Shown in pieces: positions 5,381-26,725 of a DNA stretch of 26,725 nucleotides (positions within the stretch are counted from its first letter, which is position 1; every line of letters starts with the position of its first letter). A model generated the notes under the pieces. That model was not told the origin of the DNA and ran no database searches. It saw only the letters and a list, made by a program, of their open reading frames with translations. Where the stretch lies: positions 1 through 26,725 of the forward strand of contig JAZJZE010000043.1 in assembly GCA_040390065.1 (NCBI GenBank), in the 5' to 3' direction. The position numbers were made by a program, and so were the translations under genes. This DNA comes from a bacterium (GTDB lineage Archaea > Thermoplasmatota > E2 > JACPAO01 > JAHFTW01).

Positions 5381-5386
5381 ATAAAA
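5381..5386 (-). promoter_or_regulatory. Probable TATA box of EF-2 (TTTTAT)
   Basis: Strongest TATA-like hexamer in GC-rich context, ~72 nt upstream of the ATG; implies a ~50 nt leader. Confidence 0.6.
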
Positions 5387-5392
5387 GGGTGG

Positions 5393-5410
5393 CGGGTCGC
5401 AAGGCGGCGT
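5393..5410 (+). repeat. Left island boundary: 18-bp direct repeat CGGGTCGCAAGGCGGCGT
   Basis: Exact copy at 18031-18048. Confidence 0.85.
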
Positions 5411-5585
5411 CCGTAATCCCCCGGAACGGCCGCTGAACGGCGAGAGTCCATCCGCGAAGGCCAAAGACAGGGCTGAGGGGCCGCAAACGGGCCGCCTTGC
5501 GGCGCCGGGGGGTGGTCCGCAGCACTTGCCGTGGCGGAGCGCACATGGCGCCGGCACCGGTTTTTGACGCCGACGCCACCCGTGT

Positions 5586-6854
5586 TTAGACAGCGTCGAC
5601 TATCCCTTGAAGCCCCTGAGCCAGCCGGTTGGCCGTTTGGGAGAGCTTGTGACGTGCGAGGCCGGCGACGGCCATGCTTACTCCATGCACGGTAACGCCG
5701 GCCGTCGTAAATCGCTCAAAGGCCGCGACTGTCCCTGGTAGCGTGTCCGGTTCTGCCAAACCCGGGTATAGCAAGACCACGGTGGTCGCTTCGTATGCCT
5801 TTGCGAAGGCCAGCGCTTCGTAGACGTCTGGCCGGGCTATGGTCCGCCTTTCGGATTCAATGGAGGCCTTGTATTTCGCATCGACCAGAAGGACTAGTGA
5901 AGTCGGTGGGCGGACCACTATGTCGGGGTGCACGAAGCGTTCGACGGTCGGGCCGCTCGGTAGGAACCGAGATTCCCCAAACAACAGTTTGCCTCGTTCG
6001 ACTTGGGCCGCTCCATGGTATTGGGCGAGAAGATTTGTTAGGAACCGCTCCCAGGTGGGCGCGGTGGGCAGCATGAACCCCGGCGCCCCTTCGTGAACAG
6101 GCTTGTCAAGACTCAGGCCGCCTTGGGCAAGATACGCCTTGGCCAGGTCATAGGCAGGCTGCCAACGCGTATGCCGGGGCGCCAAGCGCGCCTTGGGGCG
6201 GCGCCCGCTTGGGCTAGTTTGGGGCTGGATTCTGCCAGCCAGGCCGCGCAGCCTTACGCGCACTGCGGGGCTCCGCACTTCGGGCTGGAGTCGGCCCAGG
6301 GCTTGGCGGATGACCTCGGTTTCCGGCGTGGTGTCAAAATGCCGAAGCCCACGCTGCCGGAACCCGTCCGGGTTGGGCTCGTGGAATGCGTCTGGCACGA
6401 TCTCACCGGACACCTGGAACGAGTACCAAGAATCGCGCCGGTACTCGAACATGGGCCGCCGCATGGCTCGCTGGATTGAAGTCGCAAGGGCGGCGCCTAT
6501 CGCATCGGGGATGCTCGCCGAGGTGGCCCGAAACCCCAGGGCTGAAGAAACGTCCAGCGCCCCTCTGGTCGCGATGGTCGACAACAAGAGGAAATCATCG
6601 CGCCAACTTGGGTCGGCGGGGTCAAGAAACTTGGGCACGACCTCGACCGCCGTGGTCCGGTTCAGACGAACATAACCTGCAACACCGCGCACCGTGAAAG
6701 TGTTACGCCCTTCCTCAATGACTTGGGTCTGATTCGTCGACACGCGGATGCGACGGCGCAGCCGCGACAGCAAGGCTGAAGCCAAGTTGGGGTCGCCAGA
6801 CAGGCAATCGTAGGAATCGCGGCCTTTCTCCTCCCATAGAGATACGACCCGCAT
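5586..6854 (-). CDS. mcrC: McrC-like PD-(D/E)xK restriction endonuclease subunit
   Basis: N-terminal GVAGYV...EVVPKF, TWERFL, catalytic HPDIVV...LVDAKYK, DVYEALAF, VVLLYP; directly downstream of the McrB-like gene. Confidence 0.88.
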   Translation of the reverse strand: MRVVSLWEEKGRDSYDCLSGDPNLASALLSRLRRRIRVSTNQTQVIEEGRNTFTVRGVAGYVRLNRTTAVEVVPKFLDPADPSWRDDFLLLSTIATRGALDVSSALGFRATSASIPDAIGAALATSIQRAMRRPMFEYRRDSWYSFQVSGEIVPDAFHEPNPDGFRQRGLRHFDTTPETEVIRQALGRLQPEVRSPAVRVRLRGLAGRIQPQTSPSGRRPKARLAPRHTRWQPAYDLAKAYLAQGGLSLDKPVHEGAPGFMLPTAPTWERFLTNLLAQYHGAAQVERGKLLFGESRFLPSGPTVERFVHPDIVVRPPTSLVLLVDAKYKASIESERRTIARPDVYEALAFAKAYEATTVVLLYPGLAEPDTLPGTVAAFERFTTAGVTVHGVSMAVAGLARHKLSQTANRLAQGLQGIVDAV

Positions 6855-6865
6855 GGAACTCCAGT

Positions 6866-7984
6866 CTACGCCGCTTGACCCTGCGCCAATCGCGCCATTG
6901 ACCGAAGAGCCGCAAGGACATTGGCCGGACCGATTGTTGGCCCCTCCAGGGTTGGGTAGTCTTGCTCGCCCACCGAGTGCTCCACCATTTTCAACGGCGA
7001 CGTCGCAGATGCTCCGAGCACTTCGGCTTGAAGGCGGACGTCATCGAACAGGATTTCCTGGACATGCTGCTTCATCATGTGCCAGCAGGCGGTGGCAAAG
7101 GCGAGCGCGCCATCCTTGGTCGGTTCGTCGGGCGGCGTCGTCGCCATTAGCGCCCCGTGACCAAGCTGGTAGGCTGGACCGCGCACGATGGCGAGTTTGC
7201 GATTCATCTCTCGCCAGGCCGCGACAACTGTCCGGTAGATGTCCTCCGGCGTTTCGGTCCCTCCTGGTTGGGGTGGCTCGGTATCGGTCAACAGCCCCAG
7301 AAACGCTGCCAGAGCGCCTTCTTCCGGTTGGATTTCGATTGGATAGAAGCGGCGCCGGAACGCGACGTCCAACGGCGCAATGCTGGTATCGGCTTCATTC
7401 ATGGCCGCCAAAATGTAGAGGTGACTTGGCAGTGCAATTCTCTGAGGCTGGCCGTCGTCCCCTACTGTCTGCATGAAGGCCGTTAGGTGCGTTTCTTCAC
7501 CGGATTCGTTCAGCCGCTTGTCCACCTCGATGGCGGTGATGGCGTCACCAAAAACGGACACGGCTGGGCCACGGTTGATTTCGTCGATGGTGATGAGAGA
7601 GGCCCCGTTTGCGTGCTGCGCATGCTCCGATGCTAGGAGAAGCGTTCCCCGCGTCAAGGAGAATCCAGTTTGGCCTACGCCTAGTTTGGGAAGAATCCCG
7701 TAGACGAAGTCCCGATACTTGGTGTCCTGGTGGAACGTCATGGACCAAACCTTCGGCTGGGTGCGCGTCCTCGCGGGGAACCAATCGGGGAGATCTTCTT
7801 GCGGTGGAAACAGAACTGTGCCGCCAGGCGCGAAGGCAGTTCCTTGCCCCGCCCTCGTTGCAAAGCGTTTTGCAACCTCAGCCATGATGCGCGACTTGCC
7901 TGCTCCCGGCGGTCCCGTAAGCAAGACGTTTCGGTGCTTGGCCAACGCCCGCAAAACGGCCTCGACTTGCGTATCAATTGGCAT
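6866..7984 (-). CDS. mcrB: McrB-family AAA+ GTPase lacking an N-terminal DNA-binding domain
   Basis: Walker A GPPGAGKS at about residue 24, TFHQDTKYRDFV, Walker B IDEINRG, McrB signature MNEAD (NxxD), AFRRRF, QLGHG. Confidence 0.9.
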   Translation of the reverse strand: MPIDTQVEAVLRALAKHRNVLLTGPPGAGKSRIMAEVAKRFATRAGQGTAFAPGGTVLFPPQEDLPDWFPARTRTQPKVWSMTFHQDTKYRDFVYGILPKLGVGQTGFSLTRGTLLLASEHAQHANGASLITIDEINRGPAVSVFGDAITAIEVDKRLNESGEETHLTAFMQTVGDDGQPQRIALPSHLYILAAMNEADTSIAPLDVAFRRRFYPIEIQPEEGALAAFLGLLTDTEPPQPGGTETPEDIYRTVVAAWREMNRKLAIVRGPAYQLGHGALMATTPPDEPTKDGALAFATACWHMMKQHVQEILFDDVRLQAEVLGASATSPLKMVEHSVGEQDYPTLEGPTIGPANVLAALRSMARLAQGQAA

Positions 7985-7986
7985 GG

Positions 7987-8514
7987 TTAGACGACCTCCT
8001 GGCCCGTTTGGAGGTTGAGTGCACCAATAGCGCCCCTCTCAGAGTCCTTGAGGATTTTTTGGGCGAAATCCCGGACCCGCGAGTTGTTCTTGGAATAGTC
8101 CATGTCCAAATCGCCCCAAACCACGCCCCTGTCGTCAGCCACCAGCACGAAGAACCACGGTCGCTCCTTCTGGCGGAACTCCAGCATGTTGAGCATCCAC
8201 TTGGGAAAGAGATGGATGGTGCCGATACGCATCTCTTGATCTCGCGAAGCCGTGGGGGGATGAAGGGTGAGCGCAACCTTCTCTACCGTGCCGTCCGGCT
8301 TTACGAAGTGGACGTCCTGTGTGATTCGACCCTTGTCGTCGGGCTTGGCCTTGAACACGTTCTGCGCGAGAAAGGTCCCAAAACGCTTTGGCATCCTAAG
8401 GTCGCGGGCGCCTCCGCCGGTCCCAGCGTCGTTGCTGTCGGCTTGCGTTTTGCGGACATCTCCTTCCAGGACTTCCTTGAGGAAGACCCAGGTCGGCTTT
8501 CCAGGCTTTGTCAT
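7987..8514 (-). CDS. Hypothetical 175-aa protein; probable stand-alone B3/EcoRII-N-like DNA-recognition subunit
   Basis: ATGA-coupled to the upstream MTase and 2 nt before McrB; FLKEVLEGDV...NDAGTGGG...LRMPKRF...EMRIG resembles the B3/EcoRII-N pattern (by eye). Confidence 0.55.
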   Translation of the reverse strand: MTKPGKPTWVFLKEVLEGDVRKTQADSNDAGTGGGARDLRMPKRFGTFLAQNVFKAKPDDKGRITQDVHFVKPDGTVEKVALTLHPPTASRDQEMRIGTIHLFPKWMLNMLEFRQKERPWFFVLVADDRGVVWGDLDMDYSKNNSRVRDFAQKILKDSERGAIGALNLQTGQEVV

Positions 8515-10685
8515 GCGGTCGCCTTCTGAGTTGCCTGCGTGGGCACGTAGGGAGCGGCGCCTTGTTGCCGGGCGTCCTTGGCGCGGCCGGCAAAATGGTC
8601 GCTTCGGTCAACATCTTCGTGCGCCCATGCTGCGGCGAGAACAAGGTCGCGCGTAACGCTCGGCGATTCGCTCTGAATACGGGGTTGGTTGCGGTCCACC
8701 GAAGGGAAGTCATTGAGAAGAACTTCAACGTCATGAGCGGCCAACCCGTAGCCGCGAGCGACCAAGGCCTCGATGGTGCCTCGCAACATGCCAATCTGGA
8801 ACAGCCGCGCTTGAGACTTCGGTCCTTCTTCATGGCAATAGCGAGCTACCTTTTCGGAGGCAACGCGGAGCGCCTTTGTGTCGTGCTCAGACAGCACTGG
8901 AAGAGGAGCCTTGCGCAGAATGAAGAAATTCACCGTGTTGGTGACGTATCGGCGCATGAACCAATCAAAGGCGAATGAGTTCCAGACCGCCACGAGTTCT
9001 TCCCATGCCACAGGGATCTCGCTAGGAAGGACCGTGGGGACCTTGTTGCCGCAAACTGTTCCGGCCGGAATCCAGGAAGCGAGCATAGTGCGTTCGTTCG
9101 TTTGTCCAGTGATGTCGCAGAACCCGACGCGGTCATGTTCCACCCGGTCCTGAAGGCGTTCGGGAAGCTGGTCCTCGTCGACCCAGAATTGCGGATGTTC
9201 TGGCCGGTTGGCATATGGCCCGAGCGGTTCCCATTCGGCCCGCCGCCCGGTGCCCGACCGAAATGCCTTGGCCCCAGCGTCGTACTGGTGAACCATGCGC
9301 CCTTCAATGAGGGCCATGTGGTCTTGCTCATGTTCCCGCCGGAAGAGGTTGCGGTGGTTGGTCATGTCGAGTTCCCGGACGATGCTGCCCGGGCGCTGCA
9401 GCCATTCCGGAACCTGTCCATGCGTGTTCATCTTGCGCAAAATGTTCAATTCCTGCTTGTTGCGAACTTCCGGAATCAAGAAGTCCGGTCGCCGAACTTC
9501 ACGTCCCCTCTTCATCAGACGAACCGGTGCATTATCCTGGGCCACATGACCATTCGGCGTGTGTGGGTGCCCAAGGTCGAATGAGTCGCCAGGGGCGCTC
9601 GCGGGGCTGCCTGAGACAAGCAGGAACTTGAAACGTGAGTCGATGGGGAAGTGTCGCCCCTTGTTGTCCAGAACATCAAAGCGAAGCGCGTCCACGCCGT
9701 CGAATAGGGCCGCCCGCAACCGGCGCGTGCCTGAGTTGCGAATGAGACCCGCGGGCATTAGCACGGACATGTGCCCACGATTTTGCATCAGTTCCAGGCT
9801 CAGGGCAAGGAACGCTGAGGAAACATCGAGCTGCCCTCCTCCAAGAACGGGGAACCGTTCGCGGACAGCGTGCGAGTATGCAATGATGGAGTCGCGTTCG
9901 GTTGCAAAATTGGCCAGCGCGGCGTTTCGGACGGGCGCGCCGTAGTGGTGGTCCTCGTCGTGCTTGGCAACGTATTCGTGCCGACTTGGGCGCGGCTGTT
10001 CCCAAGGAGGATTGGCTAGAAACTCGGCCGGTGCGTCGACCAGGAAACCTTTCCATTCGGCGTCCGACGCGATCAGTGAATCGAAGGTGGCAAGATGCCG
10101 GCCCAACTTTTGGACGGTGGATGCCCGGCTTGCGGCGGAAGCCAAGGCCAGTCTCGCGCCGCGCACCGCAAGCGGGTCCCGGTCGACCCCGAAGAATCGA
10201 GTCGCGAGCGCTTCGTCAAGCTGCTTCGGCGCTTCATTCTGGAGGGCGACCGCTCGGGCAGCCAACAGGATGCCTGCCCCGCAGGCTGGGTCAAGGACAG
10301 GACCTTTGGGTTTTCCCAGAGAAGGCAAGGCCGCCACGAGGTGTTGCGCCAGACGCGAATCGGTGTAGAAGGCGCCGGCTTGACGACGTCCCGAGGAATC
10401 GCATGCACGATCTGCAAGAGCCGCGAAGGCGATGGGCGGCGGAATTCCCGTCGACTGAATCTCATGAAGGATTGCGGCGGAGGCTGCCACTGCGTCGCCC
10501 TTGCGCAGATGACGAGCGCGGCCAAAACCGTCTCCGATGCCATCAACGTCAAGCCCGGCATGCAGGGCGGCAGCATGTTCCAGAATGGCTAGCGCCTGCT
10601 CCGCTCCCAAGGAGCGGCTTGCGTTCTCGAGTGTGGCGCGGGCGGGCCAAAGGAGACGCTCGTCGCGAGTCTGGGGCTTGGTCAC
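8511..10685 (-). CDS. Gamma-class N6-adenine DNA methyltransferase (Eco57I/type IIG-like M domain plus TRD), ~724 aa
   Basis: GAFYT, VLDPACGAG (SAM binding), ANPPW (motif IV); GTG start at 10685 overlaps the upstream stop (GTGA); no obvious nuclease domain. Confidence 0.85.
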   Translation of the reverse strand: MTKPQTRDERLLWPARATLENASRSLGAEQALAILEHAAALHAGLDVDGIGDGFGRARHLRKGDAVAASAAILHEIQSTGIPPPIAFAALADRACDSSGRRQAGAFYTDSRLAQHLVAALPSLGKPKGPVLDPACGAGILLAARAVALQNEAPKQLDEALATRFFGVDRDPLAVRGARLALASAASRASTVQKLGRHLATFDSLIASDAEWKGFLVDAPAEFLANPPWEQPRPSRHEYVAKHDEDHHYGAPVRNAALANFATERDSIIAYSHAVRERFPVLGGGQLDVSSAFLALSLELMQNRGHMSVLMPAGLIRNSGTRRLRAALFDGVDALRFDVLDNKGRHFPIDSRFKFLLVSGSPASAPGDSFDLGHPHTPNGHVAQDNAPVRLMKRGREVRRPDFLIPEVRNKQELNILRKMNTHGQVPEWLQRPGSIVRELDMTNHRNLFRREHEQDHMALIEGRMVHQYDAGAKAFRSGTGRRAEWEPLGPYANRPEHPQFWVDEDQLPERLQDRVEHDRVGFCDITGQTNERTMLASWIPAGTVCGNKVPTVLPSEIPVAWEELVAVWNSFAFDWFMRRYVTNTVNFFILRKAPLPVLSEHDTKALRVASEKVARYCHEEGPKSQARLFQIGMLRGTIEALVARGYGLAAHDVEVLLNDFPSVDRNQPRIQSESPSVTRDLVLAAAWAHEDVDRSDHFAGRAKDARQQGAAPYVPTQATQKATA

Positions 10686-11809
10686 GGGCTGCGACCCCCC
10701 ATGCGGACGTCGAAAAGGAGTTCCTCGACCGTTTCCCCGTTCTTCTTCGCATCTTGATTGGAAAGGTAGCGGCCAATGGCCCCGATACGCTTGACGGTTA
10801 CTTTCCCGTGCTGCGACAGAACGTCGAGGATTGCGGATTCTGTGAGATGCCCCTCGTTGCTGTAGGACATGAGCAGTCGCCCGGCCGATAGCCCTGCGGC
10901 AAGGCGTTCGAGAGCGACCTTCGCCTTCCGTTTGTAGCAAAAGTCGCTGCTCCGCTGCTCCCATGGTCGCAGGCCTGTGATGCCTTGGACAACCGGCACG
11001 TCCTCGCAGGCCAGAGTCTCCAGGATGTGGTAGTATGCAGCATACTGGCGCTTCGTGTAGGGCGGGTCCAAGTAGACCACATCCTCGCGGGTTGTTGCGA
11101 CTGCGTCTGCGTCATCACGGGACCAGGAGAAGGCGGGGGCCCCGTCAGCCCGCAAGGCTCGCGGTATAAGGCGCAAAGGCCGGAGCGCATTGGGCTGCCA
11201 TTTGCTCATGAAGCAGCCATAGGTGCCTGCGATGTTCGCCACCGCGTTTGTGGCGAGCATGAGGTCAGACAAGAGAACCATGTGCTCTAGCTGCGTAATC
11301 TGGCCCAACTGTTGCCATGCCGCAATCGTCGCACGAATTGCGTCGATTTTCATTGCGTTGCTGCGCGTGAAATACATCCTCCCCGGCGCGCTGAGGTCGA
11401 GCGGGCGGCTGTATTCGCGTGCGAAAAAGCGCCGCGTAGGTCGCGCCTCGTTTAGGTCTTGAATGGCCTGAACGTAGCCGTCCCTGACCGCGAAGGGGAC
11501 GTCACTTTCGCGGGCCAGTCCGGCCACGGATGTGCATACCGCCGACGACAGGTGGTCGTTGATGTGCACTCGCCATCCCGTCTGGGCCGCCCATTGGGCG
11601 ACGGCACCCGTGCCTGACATGATGTCGACGAATCGCCCACCGTTCGTCGGCGCATCGCCAAGCGCACGCATGATGGCCCGCACGACGCGCGTCTTGTTGC
11701 CGAGGTAGCGGAGCCTGGACGCACCCGACGTCGGTCCGCCAGGGTTTGGTTGCGGCGCTGGCTTCGTCACCAGGACGGTGCGCGCGCGCTGCAAGCCAGA
11801 ACTCGCCAT
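10682..11809 (-). CDS. Alpha-class (D12, M.FokI/M.NlaIII-like) N6-adenine DNA methyltransferase, ~375 aa
   Basis: LRYLGNK, FVDIMSGTGAV, VANIAGTYG, YLDPPY, YHILET, MSYSNEG; TTAAAG box ~20 nt upstream of ATG 11809. Confidence 0.9.
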   Translation of the reverse strand: MASSGLQRARTVLVTKPAPQPNPGGPTSGASRLRYLGNKTRVVRAIMRALGDAPTNGGRFVDIMSGTGAVAQWAAQTGWRVHINDHLSSAVCTSVAGLARESDVPFAVRDGYVQAIQDLNEARPTRRFFAREYSRPLDLSAPGRMYFTRSNAMKIDAIRATIAAWQQLGQITQLEHMVLLSDLMLATNAVANIAGTYGCFMSKWQPNALRPLRLIPRALRADGAPAFSWSRDDADAVATTREDVVYLDPPYTKRQYAAYYHILETLACEDVPVVQGITGLRPWEQRSSDFCYKRKAKVALERLAAGLSAGRLLMSYSNEGHLTESAILDVLSQHGKVTVKRIGAIGRYLSNQDAKKNGETVEELLFDVRMGGRSP

Positions 11810-11940
11810 GTTGGGGTCTCCATGCTTTAAGTGCCATATGGGGCTACCGTAGGGACTCAAGGCTCTCCACTCTGTTGAGTAGGATGAACCACGCGGGGAG
11901 GTCGGTGAAAGTGGTTCCAGCGACCCCGGTGCGCGATGAC

Positions 11941-13308
11941 TCATGTGGCGTTCGCCTCGCCCAGATGCCGCGTCCGGCCCGCCGCCACGGTCATGGAATG
12001 GTAAAGCGTCCCTAGGTCGACCCACGTCGAGTCCGCCAGCGATTGGGCACCGCCGACGAAATTGATCTCGATGCCGTGCTCTACCGAGAGCACGACGAGC
12101 CGGGTGAGGTTGTATGCGATGGCCATGCAGAGAATCTCGTTGCGCTGCGCGGTCGGGTTGCTGGAGTAGATTTGGTCGCCGAGGAACGCCTTGAAGGCAC
12201 GGTTGCCGGTCTCGGCGTTACTGCGGCGGTTGGCACGCGCCGCGTAGCCCTCGGGGTCGATGCGGGACTGGTGGACGTAGGCGCGATACGCCTTCGCTCG
12301 CGCACCCGTCTGGCGGCTAGGTGCGGCGTTCGCCTTGAGCTTGATTTGCGGCTCGATGCCGTGGCGCCGCGCGTACTCGTAGATGTAGTAGGCATTGTAC
12401 GCCTTGTCCGCACCAAGTTCGCGCAGGTCGAGCATGATGCTCGCGCGTTCCAACAGCGGCAGCAACCACGGGGCCTCGCCGAAGGGGCCGGGTTGCGCGT
12501 AGAGCGCGGCAATCATCGTGTATTCGTAGGTCCACAGAAACTCCGCGTAGTTCCAGCGGTGTTCGCGGCGCTCGGGGCGCTTGTGGTGCTTCTCCTCGAA
12601 GAAGGCCGTGAAGTGCTGCTCCGTGAGACCAGTGCCGTCGGGATGCACGAGCGTCTCGTAGGGCTTGGCGGGCCACGTGGTCAACGCGAGCAGCTTCTCC
12701 AACAGAGTCGTCGTCTCGGAGTCGACGAGGAACTTACTCATCGTGCTCCGGCTGAAGCCACCGTAGGGGTTGTGCTGCCGGTGGTCCGCGCTCGCCATGA
12801 GGCCCTGGCTCGCGCGCAGGTTGTTTCGCCACGCGACCCGCATGATGCTCTGGTAGAGCAAACCGAAGGTCGACGCGGGCGGACGGCCGCCCTTGGGGTT
12901 GATGACGGGTGGCTCGACCATGACCGGCAAGCCTTCGCGCAGAAGTCTCCCGAGCAGCTCGGGCAACTTCGTCGGCACGAGCTTCCATGCCGCCTCTTCA
13001 AGGCCGTGGTCGCGTGCTTCGTTGCCTTTGCGGTAGACGTCGGCGGCCGTGTTTGGCGTGATGGCTAGGCCCTCGTAGATGAGGACCGCGAGGATGTGGC
13101 TGCACGGCTGGTCCTGGCTGTTGCGCTTGTCCGACGAGCATCGGAACTGGTCGCCCACGCGGCGAACGCGAACGCGCCGGCTCGGGGTGCGGAGGCTGTA
13201 GACCTCCCAACGTTCCGGGTTGACCTTGAGGATGGCGTCCTCATGGCTGAGGATTTTCATGGTGTTGGCGACCATGTTGCGCGCCAGGCTCCGGACGTCG
13301 AGGGTCAC
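11941..13308 (-). CDS. DDE transposase (IS4/IS5-like) with an N-terminal SWIM-like Zn finger, ~455 aa
   Basis: FRCSSD...PCSHILAV (SWIM-like), PDGTG (D1), ADKAY (D2), RSNAETGNRAFK (R-x3-E-x6-K), AYNL; GTG start overlaps the upstream stop (GTGA). Alternative ATG starts lie slightly downstream. Confidence 0.85.
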   Translation of the reverse strand: MTLDVRSLARNMVANTMKILSHEDAILKVNPERWEVYSLRTPSRRVRVRRVGDQFRCSSDKRNSQDQPCSHILAVLIYEGLAITPNTAADVYRKGNEARDHGLEEAAWKLVPTKLPELLGRLLREGLPVMVEPPVINPKGGRPPASTFGLLYQSIMRVAWRNNLRASQGLMASADHRQHNPYGGFSRSTMSKFLVDSETTTLLEKLLALTTWPAKPYETLVHPDGTGLTEQHFTAFFEEKHHKRPERREHRWNYAEFLWTYEYTMIAALYAQPGPFGEAPWLLPLLERASIMLDLRELGADKAYNAYYIYEYARRHGIEPQIKLKANAAPSRQTGARAKAYRAYVHQSRIDPEGYAARANRRSNAETGNRAFKAFLGDQIYSSNPTAQRNEILCMAIAYNLTRLVVLSVEHGIEINFVGGAQSLADSTWVDLGTLYHSMTVAAGRTRHLGEANAT

Positions 13309-14066
13309 AGGCTGTGCCTCCGGTGCTTGACTCCGCCCGAGTAGCCGAGGTGCTGGTCGAGCCAATCGTTGCCGGTCGTCTCGGGCGCTGCCTCGGGTTT
13401 GGCCCAGATTCCATCCGGCAGGCTCATGGGCGGCCTGCCGGGCGGCGGCGTCTCGGGGGACTCCTCGACCTTGTGGCCGTTGGCACCTTTCAGGTTGCTG
13501 ACCAGCGCAGCTAGGCCAATGCCTGCTGCCGCGACGCCTCCTGCCACGAGCCAGCCCTCGCCGGGCGCCTTGCTCGTCGGCTCCGGTGGCGGAGTCGGTT
13601 CGATCTCCGGGGCTTGCGTCAGGGGCGCCGATTGCAGGGGCGCGGGTGTCGGCGGGGTGGCCACGGGGGCGGGCGCTTGCACGGCGGTAGGCTCCGGTGC
13701 TCGCTGCCACGCCGCCTCTGCAATGCGTTGGTCCGCGCGCGCACGGCTGGCTTCGAGCGACTTCTCGGTCAACTCTTGCAGAGCACGCTTGAAATCCGCC
13801 TTCGCGTCGGTCGCGGCCGGTTGCGGCGAGGCCGGCGGCGAGGTTGGGGTCGGGCTCGCGGCCTTCCGACTGGCAGCATGGCGGTGCGCGCCGCGCACCC
13901 TTGCGCCCGCCTTGGTGGGCTTGTGGTTCGGCCCGAGGGGCATCCTCATCCCATGGGCCTGGCGGAAGGATGCATGGGTGCCGTCGTTGAAGGTCGCAAG
14001 GTGTCCGCTGCGGCCCTTGAGGCTGCGGAAGGTCCGGCCGCACGCGGGGCAGGTCGTGTCGGTCAT
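13305..14066 (-). CDS. C2H2-like Zn-finger protein with Pro-rich linker and one hydrophobic segment, ~253 aa
   Basis: CPAC-x3-F-x8-H...H at the N-terminus; WLVAGGVAAAGIGLAALV segment; coupled to the transposase. Confidence 0.65.
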   Translation of the reverse strand: MTDTTCPACGRTFRSLKGRSGHLATFNDGTHASFRQAHGMRMPLGPNHKPTKAGARVRGAHRHAASRKAASPTPTSPPASPQPAATDAKADFKRALQELTEKSLEASRARADQRIAEAAWQRAPEPTAVQAPAPVATPPTPAPLQSAPLTQAPEIEPTPPPEPTSKAPGEGWLVAGGVAAAGIGLAALVSNLKGANGHKVEESPETPPPGRPPMSLPDGIWAKPEAAPETTGNDWLDQHLGYSGGVKHRRHSL

Positions 14067-15384
14067 GCTGCACGCCATTGCGCGGCAGTCCGCATAACCC
14101 GTGGACGACCCCTGGCCCCACGTGGCCCCCAGGTCTCTACCATGAAGGATAGGGTGTGGCGGGAGGGCCACATCAAGGGACGCGCATAGGTCGGCACCAG
14201 TGGTTCCAACAGGAGGGAAAGGGTGCTTGGGTGAGGGTGTTCCGGGGTGGCGCCACTGGTGCCAACCCGTGCCGACTGTCGCATATCAACAAGGTTGGCG
14301 ACGGACCACGATGAAGGCTGGAGGAGCCCTCTGCACCCCTGTGCACCTTTTGCGCGGGGGTCACGTGTAGCCACGTGGGGGGCACGTTGGGTCGTCACGC
14401 GGGACCTGTTGGTGGCCGCCCAACGAATACGGATGACGTAGGTATGGGTAGGGTGGTCGACGGCCTGCTGATATGAAGAAAGGGCGAGGGCGGCGTGCGT
14501 GCTCTCCTGTTGGATGCGTCCATACCCATCCTTACCCGACCCATGGGTGCGCGTCATCGGAGACCCGGTGGCTTCGCCTCCAACCTATACTGTCGCGCAC
14601 CCGTCGCGTACTGTGGGGCGCGCAACAGGAGGAAAACGCGTCCTCGGCCTTCACCCTTGAAGGCTCGCGGACCCCGCGCTTGATAAACCGCATTTGAAGG
14701 GTGCATGGTCCCACTACCCCACACGGTTCACCAAAGGGTGCACAGGTCACCCAAGCGCCGGGCGCGGGCGGGCAAGCGTGAAGACAGCACCCTTCGTGGT
14801 GCGGACCCAATGCCGCGAGTCAAGGGTGCTGCAACGGTGCTTCACGTCAAGGGTCCAGTCGTATTGGACTGGGGCAACGGCATCCGAATCCAACTCCCGC
14901 CCGCGGGCGTGATGGGTGCTCCCGCACCCATCGCCTCGCCTGCCCGCAAGGGTGCTGGGCGCCCGCCCAGCGCGGCCACACTTGCCTTGCGTGACGCGAT
15001 GGCCAAGGATGCCCAGTCAGAGCACCCTCGAAGTCGAGCCCACTACCTCGCCGTGCTACAGGGCGCTGGTGGCCCCGTCTCACCCAACGCGGCGGGCATC
15101 ATCATCAACCGGGAGGCCAAGCGTGCGTTCGGTCACCCATTGGGAAGGGGGAAGGCCAAGGGTGCATCCAAGGGTGCTCGCCGGGGTGGGCGCCAGGCGT
15201 CCCCGGCTACGGCAGCCTTGAGGGCGAAGCTCGCCGAGGATGCCGCGAGGGGTGAGGTGCGGGATGCACCCTTTTACGTACGATGGGTCGTGACCAGCCC
15301 GGCGTCAAACTCGGGTTGAAGGGTGCTCGGCCAATCGCTTACCGCGAGCTTCGGACTGTCCGCGGGTGAACCAGCGGCACCCTT
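13895..15384. repeat. Dispersed cluster of the 8-mer AAGGGTGC/GCACCCTT
   Basis: Exact copies at 13895(-), 14219, 14697, 14734, 14787(-), 14822, 14948, 15158, 15170, 15266(-), 15319, 15377(-), plus many 1-mismatch variants. Confidence 0.9.
14810..15369 (+). CDS. Small basic protein with two tandem homologous helical domains; apparent frameshift near 15291
   Basis: Repeat 1 GRPPSAATLALRDAMAKDA...HYL...IIINREAK; repeat 2 GRQASPATAALRAKLAEDA...FYV. The frame stops at 15319, but the -1 frame continues DQPGVKLGLKGARPIAYRELRTVRG* to 15369 and completes repeat 2. Confidence 0.65.
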
Positions 15385-15409: not shown

Positions 15410-15580
15410 CTAGGGCAGAACGTATCCAAGCGTGAGGAAGAGGGCGCCGCCTCCGAGCCATGCGGGCACCGTGAACTTGATGCCGTTGCCAAGGTCGACC
15501 TTGGAGATCCCGATGGCGAGATGACCAAGTCCGCCGAGGACCAGAATGGCGATACCGATGAGGGAGAACTCGAACGCCAT
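15410..15580 (-). CDS. 56-aa two-TM membrane protein (absent from the ORF track)
   Basis: MAFEFSLIGIAILVLGGLGHLAIGISKVDLGNGIKFTVPAWLGGGALFLTLGYVLP*; ATG lies 4 nt after the upstream stop. Confidence 0.7.
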   Translation of the reverse strand: MAFEFSLIGIAILVLGGLGHLAIGISKVDLGNGIKFTVPAWLGGGALFLTLGYVLP

Positions 15581-15584
15581 GATC

Positions 15585-16835
15585 TCAGGCCCTCTTGGCG
15601 TACGGGCTGTTCAGGGACAGGCCGGCTGAAAATGCGCTCAGCGGGTTGTCGGCGGGGCCATCGTCCTGCAAGGCCTTGCGAAGCTGGCTCGCGATTTCGG
15701 CCTTGTAGGTTTCCAGTTTGGGCACCAGGGTGTAAATGGTCCCAGTGTCAATCCTGACGACGCGCGTCTGCTGGATGTCGAAGGGAATCTTGTCGGCTGC
15801 CCGGGCGATGTGGATGGTGGGCAACCGGGCTGCATGCCGCAGGCAGAGCTCATAGAAGACGTTCGGGTTGAGGAATGAGAGGTCGGCGATGACGACCTTT
15901 GCGCGAAGGGTGTGCTCGAAGGTCTGATGCCCAATCATTCCTGCCTTGCCGATTGCATCGGCGCGCACGACCTGGAGACCCAACGGTTCGACGGCGGGCC
16001 GCACGATTGCTTCCAGGAATAGGTCGGAGTGCATCCGCTCCTCGGAACCTTCCTCCCCGATTGGTGCGATGTAGAAGCACGTCTTCTCCCACGCCACGTC
16101 GGGCGCTGCGCTCGAAGCAGTCCCAGATGCGAGTGCCGTGTCCCGCGTTTCTGGGGTGCGGGATTGAGTCGGCGTCGCCTTGGGCGTCTCTTCGAGGATG
16201 TGCTCAAGGGTGACGAGGCGGTCGGCACCAGCCAGGGTGCGAAGGGCACCCACGAACTTCGCGTTCGTCACGAAGGTGTCAACGCATTCGTCCTGGGCAT
16301 CCGGTTCAACGCCAACCTCGGCAAGGGCGTCCTTCATGACCGCCTTCGCGGGGAGTTTGTTGCCCTTGAACCGGTCGTGCAGGATGCGGAAGGGCTCGAC
16401 GTTGGTGATGGCGAGCTTGAACCTTGCTTGCGCCTTCGCATAAGCGGAAGCATCGGGGTCTGTTGCAGTGCGGCCGTCAGGGGTCAGTTCGAGCGTCTCT
16501 GCACCGTAGCCGCCGGTCGTGATTCCGTACCTTCCGGAGCTTGTGATGAGGGCTCGTGTTTGGCTGCTGTCCGGCGACTTCTTCATGTTATCCAGGAGGG
16601 TGATGCGCCGTACCTGCTGTCCGGACGCGTGCTCCTGGATGCCGTTGCCAATCTCCAGGGCATCCTCGAACGTTTCCGAGGGGAACGGGCGAGTCGTGCG
16701 CTTGCGGCGGGCCTTGACGTCGGCCGCAGTCTCCGGCAGCGGAGCAGCTTCCAGCACTGTGGCGCCGAGATGGCCGTTGGTCGTAGGGGTGGGCGTGACG
16801 GGGGCTTCGTTGTCGGACATGGGATTGTTCTCCAT
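15585..16835 (-). CDS. N-terminal wHTH-like domain plus C-terminal nucleoside 2-deoxyribosyltransferase (NDT)-like nucleotide hydrolase domain, 416 aa
   Basis: C-domain CFYIAPIG...RAD...VIADLSFLNPNVFYEL...IPFDI; N-domain RPFP...SSGRYGIT...LELTPDGR; perfect SD before ATG 16835. Confidence 0.8.
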   Translation of the reverse strand: MENNPMSDNEAPVTPTPTTNGHLGATVLEAAPLPETAADVKARRKRTTRPFPSETFEDALEIGNGIQEHASGQQVRRITLLDNMKKSPDSSQTRALITSSGRYGITTGGYGAETLELTPDGRTATDPDASAYAKAQARFKLAITNVEPFRILHDRFKGNKLPAKAVMKDALAEVGVEPDAQDECVDTFVTNAKFVGALRTLAGADRLVTLEHILEETPKATPTQSRTPETRDTALASGTASSAAPDVAWEKTCFYIAPIGEEGSEERMHSDLFLEAIVRPAVEPLGLQVVRADAIGKAGMIGHQTFEHTLRAKVVIADLSFLNPNVFYELCLRHAARLPTIHIARAADKIPFDIQQTRVVRIDTGTIYTLVPKLETYKAEIASQLRKALQDDGPADNPLSAFSAGLSLNSPYAKRA

Positions 16836-16840
16836 GGTGT

Positions 16841-16848
16841 TCACCTCC
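16841..16848 (-). promoter_or_regulatory. Shine-Dalgarno GGAGGTGA
   Basis: 5 nt upstream of ATG 16835. Confidence 0.8.
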
Positions 16849-16956
16849 GGGAGCGCCAGGGCCTTGAGGCAACTAACGGACCCGTGAGTGAAACCACCAC
16901 CCGCGGACCCGTTATGTAGGTTGTACAAGGGTACTATCTGTACAAGACGAGCAGTC

Positions 16957-17889
16957 TCAACGTCTCGCTAGGCCGGAGAGTTCATCGCGGGCCAACAGGG
17001 CGAAGGTGGTTCCTGGTTCGGTAAGGACGACCAGCCGCTCCAGGCCCTTGACTTGTGTCTCAACGAGCCGTCTCTTTTCGAGGTCGGCCAACCTGGTGCG
17101 GAGGCGCCCTAAGGCCTTGCTGTGGAGTGTACGCAAAGTACCCATCGGCTTGCGTGTTTTCGGCGTGCGCTGTTCGGCTCGCTTCGTCTGCTTTAGCGCG
17201 TGCCGCTTGGCCACGGTCGACGGCAGCAAGTCGGCGAAATCCTCCATGGCTGCTTCGGGGTATGGGATCAGATGCTCAAGCAGTTCGCTGCGCGTGGCGC
17301 GGCCTCCCTTGTTGAGGAGAAACGCAAGCACCTGCCATTCGTAGCGTTCTAGGTGCACAAGGGGGATGGCGGGAATTGCAAGGACATCGCGTAGGCCAAC
17401 TGACATGCCATGGCGTTCCCACAGGTCCTGACGCTTCTTGGGGTCGCTTTCCCGCTCCGTGTACTTCTCCGGCTGCACGTAGTAGAGCGAGACGAGGCCC
17501 GTCTGTTGATATGCCATGCCGCCTAGGCCGGCGGCAAACGCACCAATCTTTGAGCCGGAACTGATGTTGATGCGAACCTGATTGTGGCCTCGGTAGGCCT
17601 CAAGGTGGCATAGCTCAACGACCTTGGCCAAGGTGTTTTCGAATTCGACGCTCCTTCCGCCTTCTGTCTTTGCGATGGGGTGGGTCTGGACCTCCAGGCC
17701 CAGCTTTTCCAACTCCGCAGCCACCCGTTCGGGGAATCCAAGGCCGCCCTTGGGGTCAGGGACCACCAGATGCACACGGTTGGCGTGTTGCCGGCGGTTG
17801 TCCTTCAACTCGGCCATGAAGGGCAAGACCGCACGGTCGAACTCCCACCCAATAGGAAGGACATGGACAACGACGTGCCTGCCCTTCAT
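16957..17889 (-). CDS. DUF6293/HFX_2341-type CARF-like domain plus C-terminal wHTH transcriptional regulator
   Basis: HVLPIGWEFDRAVLP, RVHLV, VRINISSGSKI (CARF-like loop), LYYVQPEKY; wHTH ending LEKRRLVE...VVLTEPG. Confidence 0.8.
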   Translation of the reverse strand: MKGRHVVVHVLPIGWEFDRAVLPFMAELKDNRRQHANRVHLVVPDPKGGLGFPERVAAELEKLGLEVQTHPIAKTEGGRSVEFENTLAKVVELCHLEAYRGHNQVRINISSGSKIGAFAAGLGGMAYQQTGLVSLYYVQPEKYTERESDPKKRQDLWERHGMSVGLRDVLAIPAIPLVHLERYEWQVLAFLLNKGGRATRSELLEHLIPYPEAAMEDFADLLPSTVAKRHALKQTKRAEQRTPKTRKPMGTLRTLHSKALGRLRTRLADLEKRRLVETQVKGLERLVVLTEPGTTFALLARDELSGLARR

Positions 17890-18030: not shown

Positions 18031-18048
18031 CGGGTCGCAAGGCGGCGT
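18031..18048 (+). repeat. Right island boundary: 18-bp direct repeat within the palindrome ACGCCGCC-N9-GGCGGCGT (18024-18048)
   Basis: Exact match to 5393-5410. Confidence 0.85.
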
Positions 18049-26464: not shown

Positions 26465-26725
26465 GCATTGCGCAGATGCCTTCCAGTTCGTCATCCACCT
26501 GGATGCCCCGCAGATTGACTTGACCCCTTTGCTCAATCCGTGGAATCTGCTCCCAGTCCGTGCCATTGCAAGACGTGCAAGAGCTCACCAGCACGATGCC
26601 CAACATTTCAGCGGAATCTGTGGACAAGGGAGCGTTGCATTGCGCAGATGCCTTCCAGTTCGTCATCCATCTGGATGCCCCGCAGATTGACTTGACCCCT
26701 TTGCTCAATCCGTGGAATCTGCTCC
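26465..26725. repeat. Direct repeat with 172-bp period, running off the window end
   Basis: 26465-26553 matches 26637-26725 at 88/89 nt. Confidence 0.9.

Follow-up and report, generated by a model that had tools for sequence, protein, structure and literature searches.

An 8-bp word clustered through a gene of an unannotated Thermoplasmatota protein family: a candidate binding-site array

Results

A field of sites in and around the 14810 gene

The DNA analysed here, called the window, is the 26,725-bp contig JAZJZE010000043.1 of a Thermoplasmatota genome assembly (GCA_040390065.1). Judging by the names of homologues, the organism is a Thermoplasmatota archaeon so far represented only by metagenomes. 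The window carries at 14810..15369, on the + strand, a gene for a protein of about 185 amino acids (aa) that belongs to an unannotated Thermoplasmatota family. In and around this gene, called the 14810 gene, the 8-bp word AAGGGTGC is clustered in a field on both strands (13895..15384), which we tentatively read as an array to which the product of the gene itself would bind. The field holds 12 exact copies, eight on the + strand (14219, 14697, 14734, 14822, 14948, 15158, 15170 and 15319) and four on the - strand (13895, 14787, 15266 and 15377), together with 15 one-mismatch copies. Six of the exact copies lie inside the 14810 gene; all other genes of the island described below are on the - strand.

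The field spans the promoter region, the body and the 3' flank of the 14810 gene. Three exact copies stand in the promoter or 5' leader, upstream of the ATG at 14810 (14697 +, 14734 +, 14787 -). An AT-rich, TATA-like box may be read at 14680..14687 (+), and part of this AT-rich block is kept in a related contig of another sample (loose-end consensus); copy 14697-14704 lies between this predicted box and the expected transcription start of the gene. Further upstream, the copy at 14219-14226 (+) is placed between the perfect 11-bp arms of an inverted repeat (14193-14203 / 14253-14263), which are unique in the genome, and a 16-mer that adjoins this copy (14206-14221) is common to the field and to the locus of a paralogue on contig C11 of the same genome. 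An archaeal origin of the origin-recognition-box (ORB) type was considered for the inverted repeat 14193-14263 and rejected, as the arms are genome-unique and have no counterpart near either of the two Cdc6 genes. The outlying copy at 13895..13902 (-) is inside a Zn-finger/transmembrane gene (13305-14066, -), out of phase, where it is read A-R-V-R; it falls in a linker of the protein that is not conserved in a paralogue on contig C4.

Inside the gene, two one-mismatch copies, one on each strand, form a near-palindrome (ATGGGTGC, 14912..14931) read V-M-G-A-P-A-P-I. Two exact + copies lie 12 bp apart in a basic linker read K-G-A-S-K-G-A-R (15158..15177); they have only the 8-mer in common and, because the four bases after each 8-mer differ completely, they are not a recent duplication. 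The reverse copy at 15266..15273 (-) is read A-P-F where homologues have A-P-H, A-P-Y, A-R-Q and similar. The copy at 15319..15326 (+) encodes K-G-A in the ancestral frame (L-K-G-A-R-P), at a place where K-Q-A, K-R-A or K-P-A is found in the sister clade and among distant homologues. The last copy (15377..15384, -) is found in a convergent gap, eight bases past the ancestral stop and before a gene for a 56-aa peptide (15410-15580, -).

The cluster is not due to chance

An earlier note on this DNA had reported 12 exact copies on both strands, 10 of them within 14697-15384 and none elsewhere in the window, as well as many near-copies. An exact-match count on both strands agrees: 10 of the 12 copies lie in 14697-15384, and the rest of the window outside 13895-15384 has none. 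Dinucleotide-preserving shuffles of the window contained 1.09 copies on average and at most 4 (100 shuffles); for the 3.5-kb locus around the field (L020), the mean was 0.15 and the maximum 1 (200 shuffles). Sites with at most one mismatch number 57 in the window against 24.7 expected, and 27 of them (12 exact plus 15) are in the field versus 30 in the remaining 25.2 kb; the four near-copies cited in the earlier note (14543, 14651, 14849 and 14912) were all recovered. The field also holds 19 of the 40 GGGTGC hexamers of the window, each of them with an A one or two bases 5' of it. Spacing is irregular, from 12 to 245 bp from GGGTGC core to core, and analysis of these spacings revealed no helical phasing among the sites of the field. 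The GC content across the field is 0.66-0.69, and the genome is 66.7% GC (2.68 Mb in 50 contigs). No known RNA or tRNA was matched in the window at E <= 1.

In the genome as a whole (2,677,426 bases) the word occurs 71 times, 12 times in the field and 59 times dispersed elsewhere. The 59 copies compare with 57 expected under a maximal-order Markov model (observed/expected 1.04), and the sub-words of AAGGGTGC, together with the 8-mer itself, have genome-wide observed/expected ratios of 0.77-1.26, so that they are neither avoided nor enriched. When all 8-mers were counted in all 1.5-kb spans of the genome, the AAGGGTGC cluster ranked third by raw count, after a poly-C run and a cluster of CCGCCGCC, which the genome contains 1,642 times. 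The next densest grouping of AAGGGTGC, four copies in 5.7 kb of ordinary coding DNA with high GC at third codon positions (GC3) on contig C9, looks like chance. The genome-wide count thus leaves the field unique, and the word is not equally abundant elsewhere. Chance or base composition as the source of the cluster is ruled out by the shuffles and by the genome-wide 8-mer scan. A genome-wide role of the word (uptake, Chi-like or orienting sequence) was rejected, given the 59 scattered copies and the ratio of 1.04.

A copy matching seven of the eight bases is present at 5385-5392, beside the left boundary repeat of the island, as the earlier note had it. Target selection, which the note had suggested as a possible further use of the array, rests on this copy and was not sustained: about 1.2 one-mismatch copies per kb are found outside the field, and the presence of one beside the boundary repeat is therefore within chance.

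Selection acts on the DNA word

In the 14810 gene, five of the six exact copies encode K-G-A, every one spelled AAG-GGT-GC, and the sixth, in reverse orientation, is read A-P-F; translation bore out both readings, which had been noticed before. In 700 long, high-GC3 open reading frames (ORFs) of the same genome, used as codon background, K-G-A is spelled AAG-GGT-GC in 11 of 110 cases (10%) and GGT represents 8% of Gly codons. The Gly usage of the 14810 gene itself is shifted (GGT in 11 of 24 Gly codons, and in 6 of 19 outside the exact copies). The most conservative null, a permutation of synonymous codons within the gene, was therefore used. It produced a mean of 2.16 copies, and at least six copies in 15 of 20,000 trials (P = 0.00075).

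The copies are read in three different frames, as K-G-A, as R-V, and as S-T-L or A-P-F; those upstream of the gene, where read at all, give R-V and S-T-L. Five copies are non-coding (14219, 14697, 14734, 14787 and 15377), four of the 12 are in reverse orientation, and the K-G-A tripeptides occupy structurally unrelated positions in the protein (tail, arm, linker and helix cap). In conclusion, codon choice (AAG-GGT-GC in five of five K-G-A), the presence of both orientations, the non-coding copies and amino-acid replacements that create the word show selection on the DNA word beyond the peptide, in agreement with the earlier note. The unusual feature of the field is that half of the array is imposed on codons, at the price of changed amino acids, and that the protein family concerned is restricted to a single archaeal lineage.

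The 14810 gene and its protein family

GC by codon position indicates coding DNA strongly to the left of about 14100 and to the right of about 15400, and weakly in between. Relatives from the same genus align to the 14810 gene with a coding-type substitution pattern. Since the substitutions are of coding type, the protein aligns over its whole length and family profiles match it, the 14810 frame is a real gene. The window's copy has suffered a 1-bp deletion (15291..15292, +) of a base that is present in all aligned homologues. The frame after the deletion ends at the TGA at 15317-15319, and the ancestral frame reads QPGVKLGLKGARPIAYRELRTVRG to the TGA at 15367-15369; apart from this frameshift, the window's copy aligns throughout with two-domain proteins of the family. 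An identical sequence, frameshift included, was recovered from a Logan contig, a separate assembly of the run from which this DNA probably comes. The frameshift is therefore not peculiar to one assembler, although the two assemblies are not independent data. Two other runs of the source study yielded four short pieces, all distant.

A profile search found 118 family proteins at E <= 1e-3, of which none is annotated. All named members come from Thermoplasmatota or from Thermoplasmata metagenome bins, and among whole genomes, members turned up in 24 of the 31 that share the window's taxonomic family and in none of the 165 that belong to other families of the class. A match in these genomes is often to a single domain, and some large proteins carry several.

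Family proteins are very basic, with isoelectric points of 11.3-11.8. AlphaFold2 was run on a 79-row alignment with an intact relative, P0011, as first row, and returned a model with a mean predicted local distance difference test score (pLDDT) of 84.6. The model consists of a short beta hairpin followed by bundles of three helices at 55-107 and at 136-189. A GRPxS(P)AT stretch, which forms an extended basic arm, precedes each bundle, and a disordered basic linker connects the two. From this predicted shape and the charge we infer that the product is a DNA-binding protein of helix-turn-helix (HTH)-like type. The domains recall, in our view, the HTH of resolvases and invertases, which carries an N-terminal minor-groove arm (Pfam HTH_7). 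The likeness would lie in the Gly-Arg-Pro start, the predicted three-helix unit and a final helix with Tyr-Arg; in contrast, the 14810 family has two tandem units and an N-terminal beta hairpin, no catalytic domain and no Pfam match.

Library searches gave no name to the domain. Pfam, including HTH_7 and the ParB domain, had no family at E <= 1 for five family members, and PHROGs, PADLOC and NCBIfam had no match for the 14810 gene. A single match was found among Protein Data Bank (PDB) sequences (E = 2), no match in the ESM Atlas names the domain (best score 0.77), and Foldseek searches of PDB and BFVD gave nothing at E <= 0.001 (E >= 0.06). Prediction of a P0011 homodimer scored 0.09 against a mark of 0.42, which speaks neither for nor against dimerization.

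The K-G-A footprint follows one clade of the family

The seven database proteins nearest to the window are rich in K-G-A, with six in P0011, eight in P0010, four each in P0061, P0100 and P0008, three in P0015 and eight in P0039; the window's own truncated protein call has three. The other 110 family proteins have a similar K and G content, and 88 of them have no K-G-A, 21 have one and one has two. A quick maximum-likelihood tree was made of 79 rows; of the 118 proteins, 39 were left out, most of them short or fragments, and P0100 and the window's copy were also not included. In this tree the six rows rich in K-G-A group as a single clade, with a Shimodaira-Hasegawa-like approximate likelihood ratio (SH-aLRT) support of 99, and none of 500 label shuffles was equally clustered.

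Position by position, R-K-G-A-G-R-P is found in six of seven clade rows versus R-K/R-A-A-G-R-P in all five sister rows, and L-K-G-A-R-P in six of eight clade rows versus L-K-Q-A-R-P in five of five. Similarly, V/A-K-G-A near the N-terminus (clade 4/6, sister 0/4), A-K-G-A-L (4/8 versus 0/5) and A-P-F (3/8 versus 0/5) are seen in the clade and not in its sister, and the linker of the clade contains one to three K-G-A in varying arrangement. As judged from these alignments, amino acids appear to have been replaced in the K-G-A clade in a way that creates the word. Single sites were thus gained or lost and the array persisted, which is the behaviour of redundant binding-site clusters. Two clade proteins called from an upstream ATG, P0010 and P0015, read D-R-T-L-R where the window has D-S-T-L-R over copy 14787, which is compatible with the reverse word having been kept there. 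The K-G-A footprint of the array, at the protein level, is thus inherited by one clade of the gene family.

No member of the K-G-A clade besides the window's was found in 197 genomes of the class, and a second protein search with a clade profile brought no further members. Family loci were recovered from genome contigs (five) and metagenome contigs (three), all distant from the K-G-A clade; none was found in viral contigs, plasmids or phages.

Homologue loci and a paralogue in the same genome

At the distant homologue loci the word is absent, except for one copy in a locus (L003) that was matched through the 56-aa gene, and L-K-G-A-R-P is replaced by L-K-Q-A-R-P, I-K-R-A-R-P or L-K-P-A-K-P. 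GGGTGC is not enriched at these loci, the G011 locus excepted. The latter (L017 520-665, G011:C9) has three to four GGGTGC/GCACCC as palindromes upstream of a gene for a 231-aa protein that precedes the family member. No conserved neighbour gene was found among the homologue loci. Their surroundings are mobile or defence-like, with genes for an ArdC-type antirestriction protein, two C5 methyltransferases, Fic, AbiEii, an ATP-dependent ligase and a DDE transposase. In one of them (L007 41-1198, G006:C15), the tail of a C5 methyltransferase weakly resembles the GRPxS arm and first helix of the family (pairwise E 0.001). Another (L044 440-640, G002:C30) has a purine-rich non-coding stretch with seven GGTGTCC/GGACACC in loose tandem, about 850 bp from the family member with another gene in between.

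The window's genome encodes a paralogue with three domains (C11:34251-35003), directly after a putative tRNA gene; of the homologue loci compared with the window for over-represented k-mers, that of the paralogue scored best. In the corresponding locus record (L043, G000:C11:33081-36503), the tRNA gene was judged by eye at about 915-990 and the paralogue (1024-1929) starts about 40 bp after it. The non-coding DNA beside the paralogue contains six copies of ACTTTC on one strand in about 560 bp (uncorrected P 7e-7), and the roughly 700 bp of repeat-rich non-coding DNA behind it also carries four CAACAGG. The paralogue, the tRNA gene and the repeat-rich DNA suggest an integrated element. The ACTTTC cluster would give weak support to a self-binding array.

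CAACAGG is also present four times in the 743-bp gap 14067-14809 of the window. The word CAACAGGAG(G) has 53 genomic copies, many of which form pairs of opposite orientation, separated by 40-110 bp of non-coding DNA; sites were noted in the window (14207, 14405, 14505 and 14623) and at C9:470989-471050, C5:324661-324710, C12:20372-20485 and C11:35121-35207 of the same genome (G000). It is probably a separate, general signal of the genome, possibly a general regulatory word of the organism.

Discussion

A candidate array for the product of the gene that carries it

Because the copies occur in both orientations, and in coding as well as non-coding DNA, they call for a sequence-specific reader of double-stranded DNA. 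The facts call, moreover, for a reader that acts locally and is inherited together with the K-G-A gene clade. The simplest candidate is the 14810 product, since it is very basic, is predicted to have two helical domains with basic arms, and is encoded at the sites. The earlier note had proposed a protein-loading array (centromere, iteron or silencer-like), and this remains the most economical reading because the gene encodes a very basic protein with two HTH-like domains. The non-random field, the selection at the DNA level and the basic two-domain product stand in favour of the proposal; no ParA, Rep or FtsK-like gene was found in the island. Our best explanation, which we put forward tentatively and at somewhat less than even odds, is that the field is a homotypic autoregulatory or nucleoprotein binding-site array for the 14810 product, used in autorepression or in a higher-order complex.

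Such an array could work as follows. Each three-helix domain would read the GGGTGC core in the major groove, and the GRPxS arm would contact the adjacent A/T pair. With two domains per chain and sites on both strands, many molecules could assemble together over the promoter, the body and the 3' flank. Archaeal repressors are known to act between the TATA box and the transcription start; occupancy of the copy placed there would result in autorepression. The other copies would form a high-capacity cooperative nucleoprotein block, acting as a sink, as a roadblock or insulator, or as a tether, and this block would travel with the gene on mobile DNA. One can go further and picture the gene as a self-referential module, in which the coding sequence has been rewritten into sites for its own product so that the gene is itself the operator, sink or tether, and in which the paralogue does likewise with a different word; we regard this extension as rather doubtful.

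Several observations weigh against binding by the product of the gene. First, the 14810 gene is frameshifted here, so that the array could be a remnant, or could rely on protein supplied in trans. Second, binding by any protein is a deduction from sequence and the binder is a candidate. The DNA-binding character of the product is itself deduced, since only generic fold matches were obtained and no library names the domain; the best VIA-align (wide) match, with Z 6.0, is tied with generic three-helix or helical matches. Third, the K-G-A footprint is a protein-level proxy for the array in the relatives. Fourth, the third helices of both domains are near-identical in the K-G-A clade and in the K-G-A-free sister clade, and a clade-specific binding specificity is therefore not evident. 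Fifth, a neighbouring gene contains one exact copy, at a distance of 900 bp. Finally, the 15 locus records examined for over-represented 6-, 7- and 8-mers against genome k-mer background (11 distinct loci and four duplicates) gave best P values of 1e-3 to 7e-7 at the 11 distant homologue loci, versus 1e-18 to 1e-21 for the window. The earlier note had asked whether homologues of the gene carry motif clusters of their own: both K-G-A and an array are missing from the distant loci, K-G-A is kept and multiplied in the close clade at the protein level, and the paralogue is weakly positive. The expectation is at best weakly borne out, by the paralogue only.

Were the product to bind its own gene, the field would be a natural case of a regulatory or architectural code overriding both codon usage and amino-acid identity, and binding would be the first functional handle on about 120 unannotated proteins, a family encoded in mobile and defence regions of Thermoplasmatota from soil and groundwater that have not been cultured. 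Should the methyltransferase/McrBC-like module of the island target the word instead, the specificity of that enzyme would be given. Either way, the field defines a protein-DNA recognition problem in a lineage without genetics, and an in vitro check of the prediction would be inexpensive, since it involves a single protein and a single word of 8 bp.

Other readings of the field

An array that is real and selected could have a different binder, either a host factor or another protein of the element, such as the neighbouring membrane-anchored Zn-finger protein or the CARF/winged-helix regulator, the 14810 gene merely carrying the sites. This would account for the likeness of the recognition helices in the K-G-A clade and its K-G-A-free sister, for the one exact and two near copies inside the Zn-finger gene, for the persistence of the array despite the frameshift, and for distant homologues devoid of arrays. 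However, the K-G-A footprint follows the clade of the 14810 gene itself, the paralogous Zn-finger/transposase pair on C4 and the 9 kb around it contain no AAGGGTGC, and no conserved neighbour accompanies the homologues as a constant partner. A different binder is, in our estimate, unlikely, if the most serious of the alternatives.

The word, or part of it, could be the recognition site of the restriction-modification (R-M) module of the island, with the cluster serving as a methylation-sensing or sentinel region; a cluster of R-M sites had been listed as an option in the earlier note. The module, with two adenine methyltransferases and McrB/McrC-like proteins (5586-12025), lies 2-9 kb away in the same island. 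Being asymmetric and having adenines on either strand, the word would be a fitting target for a pair of strand-specific methyltransferases. Family homologues are found beside DNA methyltransferases in two of five 8.5-kb loci, and the weak likeness of one C5 methyltransferase tail to the arm and first helix of the family (E 0.001) points the same way. On the other hand, the genome as a whole shows no avoidance and no enrichment of the word (observed/expected 1.04, weak evidence for an 8-mer), and an 8-bp specificity is, to our knowledge, unusual for such enzymes. The packing of sites into this one gene is left unexplained, as is the fact that the K-G-A footprint tracks the gene clade. We hold this reading to be improbable.

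A reading devoid of DNA function, in which a K-G-A-rich basic peptide was selected or drifted, or in which the + copies act as Shine-Dalgarno-like pause sites in the mRNA, would agree with the conservation of K-G-A at the protein level in the clade and with the resemblance of the word to the purine-rich ribosome-binding sequence, whose consensus is the basis of that likeness. It is very unlikely in view of the rare GGT codon used in all five K-G-A, of the four reverse and five non-coding copies, of the three reading frames, and of the unrelated structural contexts of K-G-A. Least likely of all, the copies would be transposase or recombinase sites of the IS5-like element or of a unit bounded by the inverted copies 14219 and 15377: an IS5-family DDE transposase gene is directly beside the field, both orientations occur and the outermost copies of the main block are mutually inverted, but there is a single cluster instead of two ends, another repeat (11891-11919 and 14248-14272) probably forms the ends of the insertion sequence (IS), the word is absent from the paralogous IS on C4, 14219 and 15377 share nothing beyond the 8-mer, and the in-gene copies arose by substitution in a conserved reading frame.

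Comparison with known systems

If it is an array of the proposed kind, the field would resemble centromeres, operators and titration arrays in its working principle and be a member of none of these classes. A full-text literature search for the 8-mer returned nothing related by title among the matches listed, and a search for intragenic autoregulatory sites in archaea nothing pertinent among the matches listed.

Centromeres and partition sites of the ParB-parS type can sit in or beside the gene of the binding protein, including its coding sequence. The field would share with them short cis sites within and around the gene of a small, here predicted, DNA-binding protein on mobile DNA. It differs in that the word is asymmetric, 8 bp long and present in 12 exact copies of both orientations instead of a 16-bp palindrome, and in that the element is integrated in the chromosome. 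No ParA/CbiA-type ATPase and no ParB domain were found in a Pfam scan of 26 window ORFs, the AAA_5 protein being McrB-like. The palindromic sites of centromeres have as sole counterpart in the field the near-palindrome at 14912-14931, made of two imperfect copies.

Operator or iteron arrays and initiator-box titration loci bring together many short sites with cooperative, high-capacity binding, and a promoter site that autoregulates. These arrays are mostly non-coding and regular or contiguous, whereas the field is irregular (12-245 bp), unphased and half in codons. Iteron origins have direct, regular repeats of 17-22 bp and an AT-rich element; here the word is 8 bp, on both strands and irregularly spaced. 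No Rep or Orc1/Cdc6 was found in the island, and Cdc6_C matches lie on contigs C11 and C5. Subterminal repeats of plant transposons consist of a short word in both orientations, irregularly spaced over several hundred bp and bound by the transposase. They form two fields at the ends of the element, in contrast with the single field on a non-transposase gene described here.

The nearest documented likeness may be the clt loci of Streptomyces plasmids, whose direct 8-bp repeats serve as recognition sequences for the cognate TraB (PMC4447253). As far as that account of clt goes, the two would have in common a clustered 8-bp word, specific to a plasmid or clade, over a few hundred bp of a mobile element (PMC4447253). 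They differ in that clt repeats are direct and the present ones are on both strands, in that the host is an archaeon, and in that the array runs through the gene of a putative two-domain HTH-like protein. Searches of the island proteins with Pfam, PADLOC and NCBIfam brought up no FtsK/SpoIIIE/TraB-like translocase.

The island and other sequences of the window

The field is inside a stretch of lower GC content, from about 5.4 to 18.0 kb, which was read as an island of defence and mobile genes. A 15-bp direct repeat, GGGTCGCAAGGCGGC, flanks it (5395-5409 and 18032-18046), and its complement is also present at 5491-5505. An empty site of the island was not found in relatives, and the gene on the right flank has no close relatives in the genus.

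From left to right, the - strand of the island encodes a McrC-like protein (5586-6854), an AAA_5 McrB-like protein (6866-7984) followed by a 175-aa ORF, an 817-aa N6 methyltransferase of the Alw26I family (8511-10964) and a D12 methyltransferase (10682-12025) whose gene overlaps the latter; we take the gene order over 5586-12025 to resemble that of LlaJI-type restriction systems. An IS5-family DDE transposase (11941-13275) and the C2H2-like Zn-finger protein with a C-terminal membrane helix (13305-14066) are encoded next, also on the - strand. A pair of transposase and Zn-finger genes with 67% identity is present at G000:C4:101731-103622, beside a tyrosine-recombinase-like ORF. Possible IS ends are found at 11891-11919 and, inverted, at 14248-14272, with an extra internal copy at 14184-14208.

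Beyond the field, the - strand carries the genes of the 56-aa peptide, which is predicted to be a two-helix membrane peptide (15410-15580), of a 447-aa protein with a TIR-like C-terminus (15585-16928; PADLOC E 2e-10) and of a CARF/HFX_2341-type (winged-helix) regulator (16957-17889). The 56-aa gene alone is kept in two related genomes (77-79% aa identity), where the 447-aa and CARF genes are absent.

Three other repeats were noticed. The word GAATCCAC occurs seven times in 290 bp at G000:C9:251795-252081 and 87 times in the genome in total, and contig G000:C3 ends in a run of more than 46 C. In the window, an 89-nt direct repeat, 99% identical (26465-26553 and 26637-26725), has its two copies 172 bp apart and reaches the window end.

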